A stretch of 64,000 nt of DNA, taken from positions 96,001-160,000 of the forward strand of contig JAHQWG010000016.1 in NCBI GenBank assembly GCA_029856045.1, given 5' to 3'. A program made the translations under genes and the position numbers. Below are positions 15,445 through 23,697 of the stretch, in pieces (within the stretch, counting starts at the first letter, position 1; every line of letters starts with the position of its first letter). Source of the stretch: Promethearchaeia archaeon (GTDB taxonomy: Archaea; Asgardarchaeota; Lokiarchaeia; Sigyniarchaeales; SOKP01). The notes beneath the pieces are model-generated. The model worked only from the letters and a program-made list of their open reading frames with translations, made no database searches and had not been told where the DNA came from.

Positions 15445-17850
15445 TTATTTTTTTCGATGCGTTTTGAATTTCTCATATAATGCTTTATCCAAAAATTTTC
15501 CGATTTTTTTTGATATATTACTAGCAATTCCCAAACGTTCTCCTTCAATCATTAATTTAAAATCTTCAGAAGTTGGCTCACGATTCAGTCTTGTTTGTAA
15601 AATTGGAGCTGCAATTTTGATTACTATTTCTTTTATTTCTTCATACGCCGGAATTCGGATAGGATCCCAGCGTTCTTTTATTTTCTGTAGTGCAAAATAA
15701 TAATATTGAGTGAGTAATTCAATAGGATCTCCTTTTAATTCACTATGAAGTTTAATATTTTCAGCTGCTGTTTTATTATCTTTTTCATTCCAATATAATT
15801 GATTAGGATTTATTCCTGGACTAGTAATTCTCATTAATGATGAGGTTATTTTTCTCTCTATCCAATTTAACGTACTAATTTCTTGTTTCTCTCTTATTTC
15901 TTTTTTCTTCTCTTCTTCTTTTTGTTTCTTTTCTTCATAGATTTCTTCAATTCTTAATTTTCTAAGCTGTTCATATGTTTTAAGTCTTTGAATTAAATCA
16001 TATGCAATTATATAAGAGACTGGAGAAACATATTCTTCTTTTAATGTCAATGAAGCAAAATCCTCAAAAATTGGACTAACTTCAGTTTTTAATTCATTAA
16101 TACCTTCTTTTAATGATTTATCTGTAAGTCTAGCCAAAATGAAACCGTTTACTAAGAAAGGATTGTTTTGTGCGTTAAAAATATTACTTAACTCTGTTTG
16201 TCTTCTTAACATTCTCTCAATCATTAACTCTTCAATTTTAACACTAACCCATCCTTCAGTACTTGTTGTACCGAATATTCTTTCTAATCCTTTTAAAAAT
16301 AATGATTTATCATCACTGATTTTAATATACGCTTCAAGAATTCGGCCCAAATGTCGATTAATTTCCGAAAAAATATTAAAATATACTTCTTTTGCGAGAT
16401 TTAATAGTATTTCTTTATATTCTAATATTTTTAATAATTGAGAATAATTTTGAAGATTATATTTTTTAATAATTCGATTATTAATAATTTGGTGTTTAAG
16501 ATTATATGTTTTTAACTCTTTCGGTGAGATGCCAATACCATTGCAAATTCGTGCAATTATTTTTTGATTTTTATCATCTGAGAATAGTTCCTTTAAATTC
16601 ATGTATTTTAATTCATTTACATTTTCCATGGCAGTTAATCCTTGATAATGAGGCTTTTTTAGTTCATTATAAAAAAGTTTTGCAAGAATTATTGGATTCC
16701 TTTGAGGATCTCGCAATTTATTTATATCTGATTTATCAATATTAAAATTCTTCATTGTTTCTATAACATTTTCTACAACTTCAAGTGAAATTTTATTAAG
16801 ATGGTTAAGGTTAAAAACACCATACTTATTTAGTACAAAAATGGTATCGGAAAATGAATAATTCATTAAACTTTGAAAGTAATAGACAAAATCATTAACA
16901 TTTTTACTATTTATTTGAGCAAGATCATTAAATATGAATCCAATTATTTCTTTCTCAAAATCTTCATAATTTATTTCTTGTTGAAGACCATCTTCAATTT
17001 TACTTACAAGTTCTTGTTTAGTTTGATTTGCATGTAGAAATAAATTTAACCCACGTTTTGAAATGGGAAAAGTATCAAAATTAAATTCTAAAGCTTTTCT
17101 TAAAATCATTCTAATAGACATTGTCTGCATTTGGAGATCTTTAAATGACTTGAATTCAAATTTTTTTTTTAACGTTTCTTCTAATCGAGAAATTAAGGAT
17201 AATTCAATATATTTATCTTCTTTTTCTTTTAAGGCTAGTTCCTTCTCAATCTCAATAGAAATGCTTTTTAATTCTGATCCTTCTTCAATAATTTCACCTT
17301 TAATTTGATTGGTAAACCCTAAAAGATCTCCAAGAAAATCATAGAAATGATATTCAGGATAATTTTGTATTAGTAGGACAAGAAAATCTTCCATTTCTTG
17401 TTTAATTTTTTGTTTTTCTTGTTCTTTTTGAAAATCAGCTAACTTATCATAATTTAGTAAATAGGTTATTATGTTCTTTCTAATATTTAACTTCTTATTA
17501 TTAAGTTTTATCTCATAATCAAATGAATCTTTTCCAAATGATTTTATTTCTTTAAATAAAGTATCTTTTTCCATTTTTTCAATTTTATATGTAGATTCCA
17601 CAGAGATTTGAGCTAAATTAGATGAATCCTGTATTCTTATACCTAAATTATGATATGCATGGATTGCAGCAGCAGCTATGAGTACATTATGAAGTTTATT
17701 TTTATTACCAATTAATTCAAAAATTTTCTGTTTATCTGCCTTACGTTTCAAGTGTGAAATTATTAAGTATATAGTTTGAAAAAACTTTTGAGTGCTCTCA
17801 GCTGCTGTAGTTTTTCTTTTTATTCCAGAGATGCTCAATATATCATCCAC
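15445..17850 (-). CDS. large hypothetical protein, predicted mostly alpha-helical
   Basis: 801-aa ORF overlapping the 3' end of the upstream 771-aa ORF; no motif recognised. Confidence 0.75.
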   Translation of the reverse strand: MDDILSISGIKRKTTAAESTQKFFQTIYLIISHLKRKADKQKIFELIGNKNKLHNVLIAAAAIHAYHNLGIRIQDSSNLAQISVESTYKIEKMEKDTLFKEIKSFGKDSFDYEIKLNNKKLNIRKNIITYLLNYDKLADFQKEQEKQKIKQEMEDFLVLLIQNYPEYHFYDFLGDLLGFTNQIKGEIIEEGSELKSISIEIEKELALKEKEDKYIELSLISRLEETLKKKFEFKSFKDLQMQTMSIRMILRKALEFNFDTFPISKRGLNLFLHANQTKQELVSKIEDGLQQEINYEDFEKEIIGFIFNDLAQINSKNVNDFVYYFQSLMNYSFSDTIFVLNKYGVFNLNHLNKISLEVVENVIETMKNFNIDKSDINKLRDPQRNPIILAKLFYNELKKPHYQGLTAMENVNELKYMNLKELFSDDKNQKIIARICNGIGISPKELKTYNLKHQIINNRIIKKYNLQNYSQLLKILEYKEILLNLAKEVYFNIFSEINRHLGRILEAYIKISDDKSLFLKGLERIFGTTSTEGWVSVKIEELMIERMLRRQTELSNIFNAQNNPFLVNGFILARLTDKSLKEGINELKTEVSPIFEDFASLTLKEEYVSPVSYIIAYDLIQRLKTYEQLRKLRIEEIYEEKKQKEEEKKKEIREKQEISTLNWIERKITSSLMRITSPGINPNQLYWNEKDNKTAAENIKLHSELKGDPIELLTQYYYFALQKIKERWDPIRIPAYEEIKEIVIKIAAPILQTRLNREPTSEDFKLMIEGERLGIASNISKKIGKFLDKALYEKFKTHRKK

Positions 17851-20150
17851 TCTTTATATATTTCATTCCAATTATTTTTTAATCGAATTTTAAGATTATT
17901 ATGCCAATATTGAAAATCAAGGACATGATATAATTCCTCTTTAACCCGGTCTTTTTCATTCTCATCTAAAATATGCTTTAGAGTTATAGTCATAGGTCGT
18001 GCGATTAATTTCGAGAAATATTTTAATTCTATTCTTTCTAAAAATTCAAATAATGATTCTTGAGAATCATCTGGAAAAATTAATTTAATAGGTATTTGAG
18101 GTTCTAATTCAAATCTAATTTTTTTTAGATCCTCAATTATAATGTTTTCTATATATTTAGGAAAATTTTGTTTAATTTCTAATGAAGCTTGATAATGTTT
18201 AGAGAAATTTAAGAGAATACTTTTTTCTTCTTGATTAATAATGGTTTCAATGTATCTATTCAAAACTGCGCTAAAATTTTTTGGGTCTTGATCTTGTTTT
18301 TCAATTTTTTCCAAGAAATCAATAAATTCATTAACAATTTCATAAATTTGCCAATCTTTCTTTTCTATTATGTTCAAGTATTGTTTAACATATAATTTTA
18401 TCCAATTTAGACAATGCTCGCTCCATTTTAAATCAATCCCTCCCACTCTTTTTTGTAAGAATCTATGAAAGTAATTTCCAAATGTAACTGGATCTTGAAT
18501 TTCATCTATAGATATTCCTCTAAGGAATCGGTTTATTGTAGAATATCGTAAAATAAAATTTAGTAGATATTTTATTTCTTCAGAAAAAACTTTAAGTTTA
18601 TCTAAATGTATTCTAATTCGGCTTGGGTCTTCATCCATCATTATCTCTGAAAAAGAAATAAGATCGGATATATTGAAATCTAGATTTTCAAAAAATTCCA
18701 TTATACTGGAATTAATTATTTCTTTAATTTCTTCAATTGGTTGTGTCTCATCATATTTATTTATTCTTTCAATAATCAATCTTTTTTCTATTAAATTACT
18801 AATGAAATCATCCAATTTATCAATAAATTTATTTCCGAGGATATTTGAGAGTTTTGGCTTATTTTTCATCAAGATTCTTAGACTTTGTATATATTTCTTT
18901 AAATAGAATTTTAATCGATAGCCAAAAAGGTATTTTGGAAGCGCGATAATGAATATTTTTAAGGTTTTTTTAAATAACTCATTCAAATAGTTTAGTGTTG
19001 ATTCGAGCTCAGCAGCGTGAATATAATTATATTCTTTTAACAATTGTTTCAGAGTAAATTCAACTAAATAATTATATTCTTTGTAATTTTCTTCGGTTAT
19101 TTCTATTTTATGAGAAGCATATTTTAATAATTTTTCTATAATTTCCTCTAAATTGCCAGTTTCGCCCGTTTTAATGAATTTAAAAATGAAATCGAAATAT
19201 TTACTAAAAGATAAAGAACAATTCATTAATATTGCATTTATCTTATCAATTAACCATTGATCATTTTTAAGCTCTTTTATTGGTTGAATTTTTTGAGCAA
19301 TATGTTCAATTAAGTAAGTAACAATCTTTTCTTGAATCTCGTCAATTGTACCAGTATTTGCAATTTTTAATAAATTCGCCCCCAATTTCAACGTATTTAA
19401 CGTAATGAAATATGCGCTTGGTGATGAGATAAAATATTTAGTATGTTCATTAATAACAGTTTCTTTAAAATTTAAAGGCATTTTTACAAATATAGGGTTC
19501 TCAACTCGTATTTCAGGGGGGGATTCTCCATATAAAAATATATTATCACCCTTAATTGTGCTATATACATTCATTGATTCATCTTCAGTAGGTGTCGAAG
19601 ATTTTATTCCAACTAATTTTTTATTCCATTTACCCTCCAATAAATCTCCTTGTAGTTTAAATGTGAAATGAGTGGCAAATTTCGCTAGAACTGCTTCTTT
19701 ATGAAATTTATTTAAATCAGGACGTCTAGTAAATTCCTCAACTTCAAAAAATAATTTACTGATTTTATCGAGAGATTCTCGGGAATTATGAATTTCTAAA
19801 ACTTTTTTTTCAGGCTTTAATGCAAGTAGAAGAGTTTCACAATCCTTAAAAGAACCAGGAATAAAAATCATAGAATTTGGATATAATTTAGTTTTTGCAT
19901 CTTTCTCATCAATATTAAATAATTCAAATTCAATGAAATAAATTTCTGAGCCAGCATAATCTTTTAACATTGCATTATATTGAGCTTGAAATATCAATAG
20001 TTCACTAACTAAGTTTTTTATTTTTTCCTGTGTTAATTTTCCAGGTCCAATAACTTCTCCAACTTTTATATTTCGATCTGGAGAGGAATATCCAAAGATT
20101 ATGGTATAAATATTCTCAATATATTCGCGTGTAGTAATCAAATAAATCAA
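17835..20150 (-). CDS. large hypothetical protein
   Basis: 771-aa ORF; no motif recognised. Confidence 0.75.
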   Translation of the reverse strand: MIYLITTREYIENIYTIIFGYSSPDRNIKVGEVIGPGKLTQEKIKNLVSELLIFQAQYNAMLKDYAGSEIYFIEFELFNIDEKDAKTKLYPNSMIFIPGSFKDCETLLLALKPEKKVLEIHNSRESLDKISKLFFEVEEFTRRPDLNKFHKEAVLAKFATHFTFKLQGDLLEGKWNKKLVGIKSSTPTEDESMNVYSTIKGDNIFLYGESPPEIRVENPIFVKMPLNFKETVINEHTKYFISSPSAYFITLNTLKLGANLLKIANTGTIDEIQEKIVTYLIEHIAQKIQPIKELKNDQWLIDKINAILMNCSLSFSKYFDFIFKFIKTGETGNLEEIIEKLLKYASHKIEITEENYKEYNYLVEFTLKQLLKEYNYIHAAELESTLNYLNELFKKTLKIFIIALPKYLFGYRLKFYLKKYIQSLRILMKNKPKLSNILGNKFIDKLDDFISNLIEKRLIIERINKYDETQPIEEIKEIINSSIMEFFENLDFNISDLISFSEIMMDEDPSRIRIHLDKLKVFSEEIKYLLNFILRYSTINRFLRGISIDEIQDPVTFGNYFHRFLQKRVGGIDLKWSEHCLNWIKLYVKQYLNIIEKKDWQIYEIVNEFIDFLEKIEKQDQDPKNFSAVLNRYIETIINQEEKSILLNFSKHYQASLEIKQNFPKYIENIIIEDLKKIRFELEPQIPIKLIFPDDSQESLFEFLERIELKYFSKLIARPMTITLKHILDENEKDRVKEELYHVLDFQYWHNNLKIRLKNNWNEIYKEWMIY

Positions 20151-20359
20151 AAAAAATTTTTTATTATCTATATTTATTTTAAAATCTTATATAAATAATT
20201 ATATCGTTATTTTTAATTTAATCCATCCTAAATTTATCTGAAATCATATTTACATTTTTTATTTAAAAATAATCTTAAAAGAAAAAAAATAAATAACCAT
20301 TTCCTTATTAGAATTATATTAGTCATAAAAAAAGTTTAAATTTGTGGACGTGAGAATAA

Positions 20360-20764
20360 ACGCAATTCGGTTCTGACCTAGGATTAGATCAGCGGGTTAT
20401 TGATGAAATTGCCCCTCAAATAACTTTTATCACATCAAATTGTGAAATAGAGGCACTAGCACTTGTAAGCCAAGAAGGATATGTCATAGCTTTCAGTTGT
20501 CTCCCACAATATAAAATGGATGGAGATAGATTTGGAGGTCTAAGTTCGGCAATTCTAATGACAGCGAGGAGCGCAATGAACTCACTTTTTGGAGAAAATA
20601 TTAATGAAATAATTGTAAGAGGAGATACAGGTTATTTTATTGTATCAAATGCCGGTCGTTTCGTTTTAGTTGGAGCAGGAACTATTATTCAAACAATGAT
20701 GAAAACAGTGAAGGTATTTAGAATCGCCGCAAATAAAATCAGAGAAATTCTAAGCAGAGTCTAA
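20360..20764 (+). CDS. Roadblock/LC7 (MglB/LAMTOR-like) protein; probable ACG start
   Basis: Frame open from ACG 20360: TQFGSDLGLDQRVIDEIAPQITFITSNCEIEALALVSQEGYVIA...RFGGLSSAILMTA..IIVRGDTGYFIV; the track ORF from 20516 lacks the first helix and strands of the fold. Confidence 0.85.
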   Translation, partial: TQFGSDLGLDQRVIDEIAPQITFITSNCEIEALALVSQEGYVIAFSCLPQYKMDGDRFGGLSSAILMTARSAMNSLFGENINEIIVRGDTGYFIVSNAGRFVLVGAGTIIQTMMKTVKVFRIAANKIREILSRV

Positions 20765-20830
20765 TATTCTAATTTTGTTTTAAAAAAAAAGATTTATATA
20801 TTTTAAAATATATCACATTTTAATATTGGG

Positions 20831-20844
20831 AAATTTTAAAAAAA
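20831..20844 (+). promoter_or_regulatory. putative BRE/TATA box for the trp-leader transcript
   Basis: GGGAAA-TTTTAAAA about 20-25 nt before TTG 20858; weak evidence in an AT-rich genome. Confidence 0.35.
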
Positions 20845-20857
20845 TTGGTTAAAAAGC

Positions 20858-20935
20858 TTGAAAATTAAGGAATTTAATTGTAATTTTTTTAATTGTTCAT
20901 GGCGTTGGCAGTGGGCTTGGCGTTGGTGTCGATAA
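20858..20935 (+). CDS. putative Trp-rich leader peptide (M)KIKEFNCNFFNCSWRWQWAWRWCR
   Basis: TTG..TAA ORF with five TGG codons in alternating positions, ending ~180 nt upstream of trpB2 on the same strand. Confidence 0.7.
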   Translation: MKIKEFNCNFFNCSWRWQWAWRWCR

Positions 20936-21115
20936 GCCTATTGGCATTGGTCTTTCCTTAATATAATCTTGCAACTTTATTAACTTTTACTTAAATAGTT
21001 TATAATAACTATTTCGCGTCCTAAAACTGCATCATTCTTATTAAGATCTAATAAGAGATGAATCACATCTTAGATGTGAATAAATTGTAATATTAAAAAT
21101 AATATTGAAGGAAAA

Positions 21116-22519
21116 TTGAATATGGATTTATTTAATAGCAGAATAATATTGCCAACTAGTGAAATACCAAAAGAATGGATAAATATACTTCCAGATTTAC
21201 CAACTCCAATAACACCACTAGTCAATCCTGCCGATGGTAAACCAGCACCTCCCGAATTAGCAATGAGGATTTTCGCAAAGGAATGTGTTTTACAAGAGGT
21301 ATCACAAGAAAACTCAATTCCAATCCCAAATGATTTAAGAGCAATGTATGCATCTATAGGAAGACCTACACCACTTCATAGAGCATACAGATTGGAAAAA
21401 GAACTTGGAATAGAAGGAGATAATATAAAGATTTTTTATAAAAATGAATCAGTAAGCCCAACTGGTAGCCACAAATTGAATACTGCACTTGCACAAGCAT
21501 ATTTTTGCAAGAAACAAGGTATTACTGAGATGGTGACAGAAACAGGTGCAGGTCAATGGGGTAGTGCTTTAGCTTTAGCATGTAATTTATTTGGGATAAA
21601 ATGTACAGTGTATATGGTTCGAATAAGTTTTTTACAAAAACCAGGAAGAAAAATTTTAATGAGTATTTTTAATGCCAAAGTACATGCTAGTCCATCAGAA
21701 TTCACAGAATCTGGAAGGAGATATTGGGAAAAAGATAATAATCATAATGGAAGTTTAGGACTTGCAATATCTGAAGCGATAGAACATTGTTTAAGGGATG
21801 AATCTATTAGATATTCTTTAGGAAGCGTTGTAAATCACGTGCTTTTACATCAAACAGTAATCGGTCAGGAGGCAAAATCCCAGCTTTCTAAAATAGGAGA
21901 ATATCCTGACATTGTGATTGGTTGTGCTGGAGGTGGATCAAATTTTGCTGGAACCGCCATTCCTTTTATAAGAGAAAAGATAAGGGGTATACACCCCGAA
22001 ACGGAAATGATCGCTGTTGAGCCTAGAGCATGTCCAAGTATGTGTAAAGGAAAGTATATGTGGGATTATGGAGATACGGCAAAGATGGCACCTATTGTGA
22101 AGATGTATACTTTAGGGCATAACTTTATTCCCTCTCCAATTCATGCGGGAGGATTAAGATATCATGGAATGGCACCAATCCTCTCTATTTTATTGAAGAA
22201 TAACGTCATAAAAACAGTTATGCACCATCAAACAGATGTTATTAAAGCGGGAATTTTATTTGCAAAAACAGAAAATATATTACCTGCACCAGAAACATGT
22301 CATGCGATAAAAGAAGCAATAGATCAGGCATTAAAAGCTAAGGAAAATAAAGAGAAAAAAACAATTCTATTTAATTTTAGTGGTCATGGATTTTTTGATT
22401 TGTTAGCTTATAAAGAATATATGGATGGAGCCCTAAAAGATTATGAGATGCCAACGGAAGAAATTGAAAAGGCGTTATCTGCAGAGGATATGCCGAATAT
22501 AGATGAAGCCTTATTTTAA
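21116..22519 (+). CDS. trpB2: tryptophan synthase beta chain, type 2 (TrpB2)
   Basis: IPKEWINILPDLP, GRPTPLHRA..LE, SPTGSHKLNTA (PLP Lys), TETGAGQWGSAL, GCAGGGSNFAG, HAGGLRYHG, SGHGFFDL. Confidence 0.95.
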   Translation: MNMDLFNSRIILPTSEIPKEWINILPDLPTPITPLVNPADGKPAPPELAMRIFAKECVLQEVSQENSIPIPNDLRAMYASIGRPTPLHRAYRLEKELGIEGDNIKIFYKNESVSPTGSHKLNTALAQAYFCKKQGITEMVTETGAGQWGSALALACNLFGIKCTVYMVRISFLQKPGRKILMSIFNAKVHASPSEFTESGRRYWEKDNNHNGSLGLAISEAIEHCLRDESIRYSLGSVVNHVLLHQTVIGQEAKSQLSKIGEYPDIVIGCAGGGSNFAGTAIPFIREKIRGIHPETEMIAVEPRACPSMCKGKYMWDYGDTAKMAPIVKMYTLGHNFIPSPIHAGGLRYHGMAPILSILLKNNVIKTVMHHQTDVIKAGILFAKTENILPAPETCHAIKEAIDQALKAKENKEKKTILFNFSGHGFFDLLAYKEYMDGALKDYEMPTEEIEKALSAEDMPNIDEALF

Positions 22520-22602: not shown

Positions 22603-23697
22603 TTGTGCATTTTTTTGATAGTTACGTACCTAATATATTTATTTTTACTATTTTTGACATGTGGTACGTTATTTAAACTTTCATTTATTTCATATAAATA
22701 TGATGAAATGATTGCTTTTATTAATAATATTATTACTAGTTCAACATTACTATTCGCAATTATTTCAAGTATTTTGAGATCTATTATTAACCCAAATATT
22801 AATCCAATTTTAATATATCCATTTGATTTCTTTACTATAATATTTATGTTCCCCTTTTTTCTTGCGTTCCATTTATTAATATATAGAGAAAGAAAAAGAA
22901 TGAAAAAAGATACGAATAATTTAACTGAATTACGTGTTGATGCTGAAGGATTGAGAGTATTACCTCTTAAATATGAGATATACAGGAAATTAACTCATTT
23001 AATAGTTATTTGCATTTGCTTTTTCTATTTCATATTTGGAGTATTTACAAAATTTCTTTTAGATAATTTTATTTCCATTCTTCCCGATTTTATTAAGAAT
23101 TTTTTTTCTGGGGCAAATTTAATAATTTTAAATAATGTAGATTTTACTCAATATTTAGTTGTTTTTTTAACCAGTATTTCATTAATGGGACTTTTAACAG
23201 CAGATTATGTGAGAATAATTGCTCCCGAAGATTATCCTTTGAAATCAATTAATCGACTTTTACGACAAAGAGAATTAAAAACTAGAATAGGACCTCATAT
23301 TACAATGGCAGTAGGGACTATTTCAATAGTCCTAATTTTTGGACCTCTATCAAACATTGGTCCGTTAATAGTTAGTCTTTCAATACTTATGTCCTCCGTT
23401 GGTGATAGTTCAGCAAATTTAATAGGAATCACAATAGGATGTCATAAAATAAGAGAGGGAAAAAAGAGTTATGAAGGATTAATTGGTGGGATTTTATTTT
23501 CTTTTTTATCCGGAATTTTCTTTTTAATTTTTCAATTCTTCCCGAACTTTATAAGCCCTCAGAAAATACTTCTTATCTCATTAACAGTTGCTTTAATAAT
23601 TGGGATAATAGATTATCTTGATTTGCCAATTGATGATAATCTTAGTTTCCTAATAACATCTTCAATTATTATATATTTATTATTGCAAAGTTTTTAA
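22603..23697 (+). CDS. CTP-dependent polyprenol/dolichol/diacylglycerol kinase family membrane protein
   Basis: EIYRKLTH, GDSSANLIG..G.H, KKSYEG, IDDNL; multiple TM segments. Confidence 0.75.
   Translation: MCIFLIVTYLIYLFLLFLTCGTLFKLSFISYKYDEMIAFINNIITSSTLLFAIISSILRSIINPNINPILIYPFDFFTIIFMFPFFLAFHLLIYRERKRMKKDTNNLTELRVDAEGLRVLPLKYEIYRKLTHLIVICICFFYFIFGVFTKFLLDNFISILPDFIKNFFSGANLIILNNVDFTQYLVVFLTSISLMGLLTADYVRIIAPEDYPLKSINRLLRQRELKTRIGPHITMAVGTISIVLIFGPLSNIGPLIVSLSILMSSVGDSSANLIGITIGCHKIREGKKSYEGLIGGILFSFLSGIFFLIFQFFPNFISPQKILLISLTVALIIGIIDYLDLPIDDNLSFLITSSIIIYLLLQSF

Follow-up and report, generated by a model that had tools for sequence, protein, structure and literature searches.

Does the short, tryptophan-rich open reading frame that precedes a tryptophan synthase gene in an Asgard archaeon serve as a leader peptide, the translation of which signals how much charged tRNA-Trp is available? 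In bacteria, leader-peptide attenuation is a textbook mechanism; it requires a ribosome that closely follows RNA polymerase. Archaeal gene control has been described almost entirely at promoters, also in the literature we searched, and there we found no paper on leader-peptide attenuation in archaea. The locus studied here lies on contig JAHQWG010000016.1 of a Promethearchaeia archaeon; all coordinates are positions in the analysed stretch of 64,000 nt (the window), and both the leader and the gene trpB2 are encoded on the + strand.

The leader ORF (20858..20935, + strand) starts with TTG and comprises 25 codons; the encoded peptide ends with ...C-S-W-R-W-Q-W-A-W-R-W-C-R and is terminated by TAA at 20933-35. 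Within nine codons, five are TGG (positions 20900, 20906, 20912, 20918, and 20924), and these alternating Trp codons (20900..20926, + strand) constitute the proposed sensing site. The GC content of the segment 20900-20959 is 53%, compared to 10-20% in the flanking intergenic DNA. The pattern of four TGG-N3 units gave no match in 100 shuffles of the window, which indicates that the array is not to be expected by chance; it is also the sole non-coding instance in the whole genome (3.34 Mb, 29.4% GC). Two further TGG triplets (20942 and 20948) continue the leader frame past the stop; they belong to the 3' arm of a hairpin and are not codons. In a sister species (locus L003), one of these post-stop triplets was lost via a G-to-A change, and the base pair was retained. 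All five TGG codons are retained in four species of the genus, and the intervening codons change. An overlapping hydrophobic frame, which begins at ATG 20899, is open in the window and would give a 20-residue peptide (MALAVGLALVSISLLALVFP).

The Shine-Dalgarno-like sequence TGGT (20846..20849, + strand) is located 8 nt before the leader start, and in other genera TGGTTTA or TGATTTA is found 6-9 nt before the leader ATG. In the window's own genus this motif is only weakly supported, because sister species have TAGT at this position. A TATA-like motif (GATTTATATATT; 20791..20802, + strand), 67 nt before TTG 20858, is the proposed promoter of the leader transcript; its function is inferred. The leaders of the relatives show an enrichment of the motif [AG][ACT]TTT[TA]TA[TA] at 51-65 nt before their start (40/73). 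As a conserved helix makes use of the 25 nt before the start codon, a 5' UTR is to be expected for the leader transcript. Altogether, the window's copy is an atypical member of its family, having a TTG start, an SD-like motif not kept in the sisters, and no T5 run.

The gene following the leader is trpB2 (21122..22519, + strand), which codes for a stand-alone TrpB-like PLP enzyme of 465 aa with a PALP domain (NF009057, 659 bits; TIGR01415, 612 bits). According to marker genes the genome is 100% complete. It lacks trpA, a chorismate-binding trpE, and a canonical trpB; no IGPS scored above the cut-off, and a protein query did not detect trpD. TrpB2 stands alone because trpA, trpD, trpE, and canonical trpB are missing; it is the only enzyme of Trp synthesis found in this genome. 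One run labelled as metatranscriptomic yielded only a 290-nt contig within trpB2 (21169-21458), which is evidence neither way.

A first-pass annotation of the locus, made from the sequence alone, can be assessed at this point. It had described the ORF beginning at TTG 20858 with five TGG in nine codons inside a GC-rich island, and it had named tryptophan synthase beta-2 as the next gene; both statements held. Its count of seven TGG in frame was correct with respect to the positions, the last two being hairpin arm instead of codons. A pairing of CAGTGGGCTT with AAGCCTATTG across the Trp codons, followed by a pyrimidine tract, was likewise confirmed in the predicted lowest-energy fold. Not supported was its assumption of a TATA box 20-25 nt before the TTG and a leaderless uORF, given the location of the motif in the relatives and the expected 5' UTR.

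The frame, the start, and the stop of the leader ORF are conserved. Approximately 85 of the 110 trpB2 loci in the same order of Promethearchaeota possess a Trp-rich short ORF, which ends 115-190 nt before the gene. Among 74 aligned leaders, the TGG frame has an in-frame ATG in 69 cases and GTG or TTG in the remaining 5, whereas the other two frames have an ATG in 1/74 and 7/74, respectively; the latter value belongs to the hydrophobic frame (ATG 20899), the stop position of which is variable. The leader stop follows the last W after 1-2 codons in 67/74 sequences, and typically 8 codons precede the first W. The N-terminus is variable, whereas the ORF length and the core W-Q-W-P-W-R-W (W-x-W-x-W) are conserved. 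A short W-P-W-H variant exists in single-contig genomes of 4.3 and 6.0 Mb within the order. The same leader is found upstream of a second, independent unit, the trpD-trpC-trpF operon, namely in 23 of the 25 instances in the family, and is thus linked to two kinds of trp units. Altogether, about a hundred relatives have such a leader ahead of tryptophan genes. The motif TGGCARTGGCCNTGG matches 66 of 134 family genomes; the reversed control gave 2 matches in 400 genomes. The first-pass annotation had suggested looking for conserved in-frame TGG clusters with variable flanking codons and comparing the TGG frame with the overlapping ATG frame (20899-20961): such clusters exist within the order, and it is the TGG frame that is conserved, which favours the earlier reading. 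Six matches of the pattern WQWPW outside the order, and one more in the family, are all contained in long coding frames and were regarded as chance. When this genome was scanned in full for further short ORFs with a bias toward a single amino acid, nothing comparable emerged; of the two candidates that contain Trp, one is the end of a convergent gene and the other the beginning of a gene for adenylate kinase.

Conservation of this type might also mean that the product itself matters, i. e. that a Trp-rich peptide acts in trans or that the hydrophobic peptide MALAVGLALVSISLLALVFP beginning at ATG 20899 is a real gene. In favour of this explanation, the inter-Trp residues Q, P, and R are conserved, some bacterial leader peptides have roles in trans (peTrpL, PMC7298713), and the hydrophobic frame is open in the window. 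However, the ATG of the hydrophobic frame occurs in just 7/74 relatives and its stop position varies. Moreover, the Q, P, and R codons are rare, GC-rich ones that pair in hairpin P1 and in the candidate helix Pa (see below), which argues for selection on RNA rather than on the peptide, and the fixed position before two kinds of trp units argues for an action in cis. We therefore regard a functional product as very improbable. The inter-Trp codons used in the leaders are CAG, CCT, and CGT. Such codons are generally unusual in AT-rich genomes. Because they seem to be chosen for RNA pairing, a part of what appears as ORF conservation is conservation of the RNA.

The RNA fold was analyzed by means of own-versus-cross duplex tests and, for hairpin P3, with a structure given by hand. 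These replaced RNAalifold, which on the full 74-sequence alignment delivered only fragments because the helices shift register between clades. The closing helix P0 has as its 5' strand ATTAAGGAA (20867..20875, + strand; leader codons 4-6), which forms a duplex of 9 bp with 20954-20962 (-9.6 kcal/mol). In the relatives the two strands covary (own -6.24 versus cross -4.46 kcal/mol, p<=0.0005), and this conserved closing helix involves the leader's own ribosome-binding region. Hairpin P1 (20909..20943, + strand) contains the Trp codons in its 5' arm (CAGTGGGCTT, 20909-18); the 3' arm (AAGCCTATTG, 20934-43) overlaps the stop codon TAA (20933-35). In a local alternative, 20923-32 pairs with 20937-46, and the 4-nt loop (20933-36) then includes the final A of the stop. 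In most relatives it is the last Trp codons that form P1, and the loop contains the stop codon. Covariation is seen between the arms of P1 too (own -10.06 versus cross -8.65, p<=0.0005). For the candidate helix Pa, leader codons 2-4 (GGCAACUG) are complementary to the Q-W-P codons (CAGUGGCC) in most leaders; covariation was not demonstrated for this helix (p=0.11), the sequence being too conserved to show any.

These data bear on two explanations which do without a sensing ribosome. The first one is a GC-rich, repeated DNA operator, to which a transcription factor binds and controls trpB2 in the manner of TrpY. The archaeal trp control characterised so far does rely on DNA-binding repressors, and the site is located between a promoter-like motif and the gene. 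Yet the compensatory changes include G-U pairs, which are meaningful only in RNA; strand-specific ORF features are unexpected of an operator; and the repeat is direct and not palindromic. An operator is hence most unlikely. According to the second one, an oligomeric, TRAP-like RNA-binding protein that is activated by Trp recognizes the UGG repeats, which recur every 6 nt, and the ORF is incidental. The regular spacing of the triplets by 3 nt is in agreement with this idea, as is the base after TGG, which is nearly always C, beyond coding need; in addition, the device precedes trp genes, as TRAP sites do. Nevertheless, a protein site explains neither the in-frame ATG (69/74 versus 1-7/74) nor the stop right after the last UGG. 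Only 3-6 repeats are present, whereas TRAP uses 9-11, and the C after TGG is accounted for by P1 pairing. Finally, a search of the complete genome for PF02081 was negative, whereas the control search detected this family in B. subtilis. We consider a TRAP-like site to be a remote possibility.

Downstream of the junction, two more hairpins separate the leader from P4 and trpB2. The first one is AT-rich (20993..21014, + strand; fold), and the two halves of this region covary (own -3.70 versus cross -2.15, p<=0.0005). The second one, P3 (21030..21060, + strand; CATC..TCTTATTA-AGATC-TAATAAGA..GATG), is specific to Trp leaders. In the alignment of P3, 83% of the cells are paired and 14 of the 18 pairs show compensatory changes; none of 500 shuffles reached a value as high. 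The P3 covariance model R1 matches 21023-21072 and no other site of this genome; P3 exists once per genome, only in Trp leaders, and its apical sequence is nearly invariant. Two loci of one genus, L005 and L006, retain P3 without a clear Trp ORF. Readings of P3 as a K-turn, as a mimic of an anticodon loop, or as T-box-like were dropped by eye, as the sequence does not fit.

A further rival is a structured RNA that, in the manner of a riboswitch or T-box, itself recognizes tryptophan or tRNA-Trp. In this case, the UGG triplets would be structural or pairing elements, P3 would bind the ligand, and translation would not be needed. The extensive covarying fold (P0, P1, P3) and the nearly invariant, Trp-leader-only apex of P3, together with its retention in L005 and L006, speak for such a sensor. 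On the other hand, there is no match above chance level to any Rfam family, T-box and Trp_leader included, and such a sensor does not predict that the start codon, the stop position, and the length of the ORF are conserved. Furthermore, Trp has UGG as its sole codon, and a sensor based on the ribosome requires precisely such an enrichment. For these reasons a direct RNA sensor appears very unlikely too.

P1 is followed by a pyrimidine-rich tract (20951..20973, + strand), which opens with TCTTTCCTT (20951-59) and contains the 3' strand of P0 (TTCCTTAAT, 20954-62). Alternatively, it can pair with the trpB2 ribosome-binding region (duplex with 21085-21113, -11.0 kcal/mol). In the relatives, T5+ runs are present in 63/74 leaders at a median distance of +37 nt from the stop (30-45 nt), compared to only 16/74 for A5+; in most of them the U tract lies 0-13 nt past the closing helix of the junction. 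The window's genus has only T runs of 3-4 (TCTTTCC, CTTTATT, CTTTTAC) and no T5. A local hairpin abutting the U tract was not found (mean z 0.04). The ribosome-binding region and start of trpB2 (21107..21124, + strand) consist of GAAGGA (21107-12) and ATG (21122-24). Across the relatives, the SD guanines of trpB2 are predicted to be paired with P=0.73, of which 0.35 is with the tract +18..+64 past the leader stop. The trpB2 ribosome-binding site was predicted to be equally accessible with and without blocking of the bases that a ribosome covers (0.53 versus 0.54), and masking of this site driven directly by ribosome occupancy was rejected on the basis of these values. A 2:3 antiterminator partner for the freed 3' arm of P1 could not be identified among the leaders: there was neither a consistent position nor covariation.

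Taken together, we conclude that the 25-codon frame is likely a translated leader peptide, which reports the supply of charged tRNA-Trp for ribosome-mediated attenuation. Translation, stalling, the direction of control, and the output step are inferred, as no expression, start-site, 3'-end, or ribosome-footprint data are at hand. Transcription would start about 30 nt upstream of the leader, and a ribosome would bind the leader while the RNA is still open. If Trp-tRNA is scarce, the ribosome would stall at the five alternating UGG codons. These codons form the 5' arm of P1, the 3' arm of which begins inside the stop codon; stalling of the ribosome would therefore prevent formation of P1 and of the junction closed by P0. 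If Trp-tRNA is plentiful, the ribosome would finish and depart, and the junction would fold. In most relatives, the folded junction would then lead to premature termination at the oligo-U tract and the unfolded one to read-through. We consider this the likeliest output there, since oligo-U tracts serve archaea as termination signals, which RNA polymerase and aCPSF1/FttA recognize. In the window's genus, control of translation initiation is equally possible, because the U run is short and the tract can pair with the leader (P0) or with the trpB2 ribosome-binding site. P3, which lies just before the regulated gene, would belong to the device, and we do not assign a role to it. A need for hairpins in termination is not known for archaeal RNA polymerase, and no local hairpin abuts the U tract; the way in which RNA folding would gate termination is therefore unclear. 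The proposal of the first-pass annotation that Trp-dependent ribosome stalling controls termination or downstream initiation is supported in this sense, although translation, stalling, and the controlled step have not been shown.

A comparison with known systems helps to classify the device. It resembles the bacterial trpL leader (enterobacterial, RF00513) in having a short ORF that is rich in codons of the end product and located just upstream of biosynthetic genes. Its regulatory codons are part of a hairpin 5' arm with the stop at or near the loop, as in the 1:2 hairpin of bacteria. A tract rich in U comes next, and the device precedes more than one trp transcription unit. In contrast to trpL, the device has an archaeal host, its Trp codons are alternating (W-x-W-x-W) rather than tandem, there is no match of sequence or covariance model, and no 2:3 antiterminator was found. 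Moreover, there is no adjacent GC hairpin, the U tract follows a multi-helix junction that holds the leader's ribosome-binding site, the extra hairpin P3 is specific to Trp leaders, and termination would make use of archaeal RNA polymerase and aCPSF1/FttA. Criteria of a bacterial attenuator are fulfilled insofar as an ORF with clustered Trp codons, the translation of which is inferred, lies upstream of trp genes and these codons overlap a hairpin arm. The criterion of an intrinsic terminator (a GC-rich hairpin with an immediate U run) is not fulfilled, as there is no abutting hairpin and no T5 in the window's leader. When 20000-22000 was compared with Rfam at an E value of up to 10, merely four weak matches at chance level resulted; Trp_leader (RF00513) and T-box (RF00230) were not among them. 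The locus is in this respect distinct from T-box riboswitches, which are characterised by a specifier loop and a conserved T-box sequence.

With the TRAP leaders of Bacillus, the device shares short-spaced triplet repeats that are located in the leader of a trp gene and overlap alternative RNA structures. However, TRAP, an 11-mer protein, recognizes 9-11 (G/U)AG triplets (GAG/UAG) with spacers of 2-3 nt, whereas here the triplet is UGG, with 5 copies in the window's leader (7 with the hairpin arm), the repeats are in frame within an ORF having a conserved start and stop, and no gene for TRAP (MtrB, PF02081) was found. In the case of tnaC, a nascent-peptide sensor of free Trp, a conserved W..D..P-stop peptide stalls the ribosome at the stop codon ahead of a Trp-degrading operon; here, the downstream genes are biosynthetic, there are multiple Trp codons, and a terminal Pro-stop is absent. 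Mycobacterial polycysteine short ORFs, which are cysteine-responsive attenuators (bioRxiv 10.1101/834739), are related in principle, since a uORF enriched in one amino acid controls genes for the metabolism of this amino acid; they exemplify that the principle arose outside the classical enterobacterial systems. They differ in being bacterial and in belonging to leaderless transcripts, whereas the Trp leader is archaeal and implies a 5' UTR. With respect to termination, aCPSF1 binds the U-tracts of terminators, and a Lokiarchaeota orthologue of aCPSF1 likewise cooperates with U-tracts (PMC8716108). An attenuator of this kind would be expected to carry U4-U8 in the sense strand where transcription ends prematurely. 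The device shares with this mode of termination an oligo-U without an obligatory hairpin (63/74 relatives). However, U-tract/aCPSF1 (FttA) termination is known from gene ends, and its regulated use for attenuation within 5' leaders is not known; the U runs of the window's leader comprise only 3-4 nt.

A conserved family, supported by covariation and located before two kinds of trp units across an Asgard order, makes translation-coupled attenuation in archaea directly testable. For the genetics that is emerging in these organisms it provides a natural switch responsive to Trp, and it is a defined case in which RNA folding would gate either archaeal U-tract/aCPSF1 termination or translation initiation. 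It also marks TrpB2 as a tryptophan-regulated enzyme, which probably serves indole salvage, in organisms without the rest of the pathway. A bolder reading, toward which we lean only slightly, is that these leaders are the first archaeal family of ribosome-mediated, amino-acid-sensing attenuators. Their ORF would be threaded through a three-way junction that holds its own ribosome-binding site, the output would be U-tract/aCPSF1 termination or masking of a ribosome-binding site, and P3 may be a second, independent sensor. If this were true, the archaeal lineage nearest to eukaryotes would control genes by means of tight transcription-translation coupling.

Several alternative pairings were seen in addition. 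The sequence CAUUGGA after P1 and UCCAAU at the apex of P3 are complementary in many leaders; without covariation (own -4.48 versus cross -4.43), this pairing was rejected. Hairpin P4 (21063..21079, + strand; TCACATC-TTA-GATGTGA) follows P3, and its 5' arm can alternatively pair just upstream of P3, where it opposes the base of P3 to P4. In this alternative helix at the base of P3 (columns 6-10 with 48-52), 77% of the cells are paired, and 4 of the 5 pairs show a compensatory change. In the window, a further alternative exists between P0 and the trpB2 ribosome-binding site.

The leader ORF preceding trpB2 extends from 20858 to 20935 on the forward strand; it starts with TTG, comprises 25 codons and ends with TAA. 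In-frame TGG codons are located at positions 20900, 20906, 20912, 20918, and 20924, and two more follow in the same frame past the stop. The GC content of 20900-20959 is 53%, as compared to 10-20% for the surrounding intergenic region. Four TGG triplets spaced by 6 nt did not occur in any of 100 shuffles of the window, and a scan of the genome (3.34 Mb, 29.4% GC) identified this as the sole non-coding TGG array of such type. What the first-pass annotation had observed, namely a Trp-codon-rich leader ORF in front of trpB2, was thus confirmed by coordinates, shuffles, and genome scan. This copy is atypical with respect to its TTG start, the 14 codons preceding the first Trp codon, the lack of a T5 run, and a divergent P3 (a hairpin between leader and trpB2). 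In a public run with a near relative, contigs break exactly at the TGG repeat, one ending at 20918 and the next beginning at 20897; the repeat probably caused this break during assembly.

For 110 genomes from the window's order, we compared the 500-600 nt preceding trpB2. In about 85 of these, a short ORF ends 115-190 nt before trpB2, and the consensus of the trpB2 leader ORFs is M-A-T-V-x4-W-Q-W-P-W-R-W-Q/R-stop. The leader occurs in all four families of the order and, within the window's family, in most genera; in the other three families, which were checked by eye only, the leaders are shorter (W-A/P-W-H/R-stop), are located further upstream and have a hairpin over the stop. In an alignment of 74 leaders from the window's family, the TGG frame opens with an in-frame ATG in 69 cases and with GTG or TTG in five, whereas the remaining two frames have an ATG in one and seven cases, respectively. 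This result is an independent test, because the start codon played no part in the choice of loci. Most family leaders consist of 15-18 codons; the first Trp codon typically lies 8 codons past the ATG, and the stop follows one or two codons past the last Trp codon. Four species of the window's genus retain all five Trp codons, with varying intervening codons (A to V, R to C). Note that the compared genomes are kin, so that these counts do not represent independent events. The feature is real and its conservation strong; that it is a translated tryptophan sensor is very likely, which is an inference from sequence alone, without expression data. A binding site for a TRAP-like, Trp-activated protein at the UGG repeats is very unlikely: it would leave the start and stop codons of the leader unexplained, the repeats are too few, and no TRAP gene was found in the window's genome.

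Several copies deviate. Three trpB2 leaders from three genomes (L057, L058, L067) have a 1-nt deletion behind the fourth Trp codon; the shifted frame reaches a UAG within the otherwise conserved GCAUUGGA, which there reads GCAUAGGA, and the resulting peptide ends in ...WCWQWPWRGDNAFA-stop. At the trpB2 loci L005 and L006 of one genus, P3, the subsequent hairpin P4 and what is left of the P1 3' arm (AACGCC..CATTGGA) are kept and the Trp codons are lost. The trpD leader of this genus is apparently decaying too, with TGG changed to TGT or TGC in some genomes (..TWFCICCWHA).

For nearly every leader, a hairpin P1 is predicted, with the last Trp codons and their neighbours forming its 5' arm and the stop codon in its loop. 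Its arms change together (GGCGUU/AACGCC, GUUGGC/GCCAAU, AGUGGC/GCCACU, GGUCUU/AAGACC), and the duplex energy is -10.06 kcal/mol for arms of the same leader vs -8.65 kcal/mol for arms mixed from different leaders (p<=0.0005). The pairing of 20909-18 with 20934-43 proposed in the first-pass annotation held, being the predicted lowest-energy fold of the window; the two post-stop TGG that it had counted in the same frame are bases of the P1 3' arm, not codons. The alternative that it had named, an overlapping frame opening at ATG 20899 for a hydrophobic peptide of 20 residues, is not conserved, in contrast to the TGG frame. That a functional peptide is what matters is very unlikely, as the codons that separate the tryptophans, rare and GC-rich ones, engage in RNA pairing, which indicates selection on RNA, and as this hydrophobic frame is not conserved.

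A closing helix, P0, forms between the 25 nt that precede the leader start, among them the Shine-Dalgarno (SD)-like UGGUUUA, and sequence 16-45 nt past the stop. A clear compensatory change is UGGUUUA/UAAACCA vs UGAUUUA/UAAAUCA; here the energies for own and mixed arms are -6.24 and -4.46 kcal/mol (p<=0.0005). In the window, ATTAAGGAA (20867-75) pairs with TTCCTTAAT (20954-62) at -9.6 kcal/mol. Upstream of the leader start, at 51-65 nt, there is an enrichment of a TATA-like motif (40/73), which in the window is found at 20791. We argue that this position and P0 favour a 5' UTR some 25-35 nt long and speak against a leaderless transcript, which the first-pass annotation had considered compatible with its TATA-like box. 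A DNA operator for a transcription factor is very unlikely, as it fits neither the G-U-containing compensatory changes nor the strand-specific ORF features.

P3 and P4 are inverted repeats between leader and trpB2, both supported by covariation. P3 lies 35-75 nt upstream of the regulated gene; in its alignment, paired cells make up 83% and compensatory changes occur at 14 of 18 pairs, values reached by none of 500 shuffles. Of 19 family genomes, 17, including that of the window, gave exactly one hit each with a covariance model of P3, and every hit is a Trp leader site before trpB2 or trpD, with none elsewhere in the genome. The 5' arm of the short P4, which follows P3, can alternatively extend P3. 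A direct RNA sensor of Trp or tRNA-Trp is very unlikely for the element as a whole, since it leaves the ORF features unexplained and no Rfam family matches the locus; for P3 it remains possible.

A second link to tryptophan is provided by trpD operons. We found the motif TGGCARTGGCCNTGG (W-Q-W-P-W) in 66 of 134 family genomes, and the reversed control gave two hits in 400 genomes of the phylum. Most sites precede trpB2; sites elsewhere occur in genera whose trpB2 lacks a Trp leader, and six of them are complete leaders upstream of genes with TrpD (PF00591), TrpC (IGPS), and TrpF (PRAI) domains. In a direct survey of the family, a Trp-rich leader ORF was found upstream of 23 of 25 trpD operons; one of these leaders belongs to the window's own genus (MTTAKNFVWRWQWSWWRWQ), and in one genome both units bear leaders. 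Thus, the leader moves between two different Trp units with its Trp codons kept, which matches the prediction for a Trp-responsive cis-regulator. In two genera, an ORF of 80-90 aa without Pfam match lies between the Trp leader/P3 and trpD (L135:401-673 and L137:399-641, both on the plus strand); it is apparently the first gene of the regulated operon.

The gene downstream of the window's leader, trpB2 (21122-22519), encodes a TrpB-like PLP enzyme (NF009057, 659 bits; TIGR01415, 612 bits). In the window's genome, which is 100% complete by marker genes, we found no trpA, chorismate-binding trpE or canonical trpB, no IGPS above the cut-off, and no match to a TrpD protein query. As no other Trp-synthesis genes were found, TrpB2 is a stand-alone enzyme. 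TrpB2-family chemistry suggests that its product is likely tryptophan, with indole plus serine or a serine derivative as substrates. A trpD operon behind a six-Trp leader is present in an incomplete genome from the window's genus; the loss of the pathway thus seems to be recent and to have taken place inside this genus.

In the proposed mechanism, the Trp codons would be the sensing site and double as one P1 strand inside the P0/P1 junction. From this anatomy it follows that a ribosome stalled on the Trp codons for lack of charged tRNA-Trp would keep the junction open, and that one completing the leader would let it fold; all later steps are inferred. For most relatives, the simplest output would be premature termination at the oligo-U tract directly past the junction. 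Termination in archaea is signalled by oligo-U; published work shows binding of U-tracts by aCPSF1 and cooperation of a Lokiarchaeota orthologue with them (PMC8716108). The region from stop to P3 is pyrimidine-rich (45% T, 16% C). A run of at least five T occurs in 63 of 74 leaders, vs 16 with a corresponding A run; counted from the stop, the first T run lies at a median of 37 nt (IQR 34-41.5), and the run starts 0-13 nt past P0 in most leaders. No local hairpin abutting the T run was found in the leaders, and U runs in the window's leader are only 3-4 long. Two alternative partners are predicted for the window's pyrimidine tract (20951-73): the leader (P0, -9.6 kcal/mol) and the trpB2 ribosome-binding region at 21085-21113 (-11.0 kcal/mol). 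Across relatives, the trpB2 SD guanines have a predicted pairing probability of 0.73, of which about half falls to the post-leader tract. Control of translation initiation therefore stays a live alternative to termination. Blocking ribosome-covered bases in the fold prediction left the accessibility of the ribosome-binding site unchanged, and the freed P1 3' arm had no covarying partner that we could find. We rank neither termination nor initiation control above the other, and thermodynamics did not yield the direction of control.

With the enterobacterial trpL attenuator, the window's family has in common a leader ORF rich in Trp codons, regulatory codons within a hairpin that has the stop at its loop, and a U tract ahead of trp genes. 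However, it is not a trpL-family member by sequence or model; unlike trpL, it has no GC hairpin running directly into a U run, and a 2:3 element was not found. Features of its own are the alternating Trp codons, the junction containing the leader's ribosome-binding site, and P3. The full-text literature searched contained no archaeal case of leader-peptide attenuation, of a trpB2 leader or of a tryptophan-codon leader, and a review of archaeal transcription-translation coupling does not mention attenuation.

Two long ORFs adjoining the locus have no Pfam match, 17835-20150 on the minus strand (771 aa) and 22603-23697 on the plus strand (364 aa); the latter has no NCBIfam match either. Upstream of the leader, a Roadblock/LC7 gene (20516-20764, plus strand) is open from ATG 20516 for just 82 aa, and its Pfam match begins at profile position 37 of 91; the true start likely lies upstream of 20516, at a non-canonical codon.
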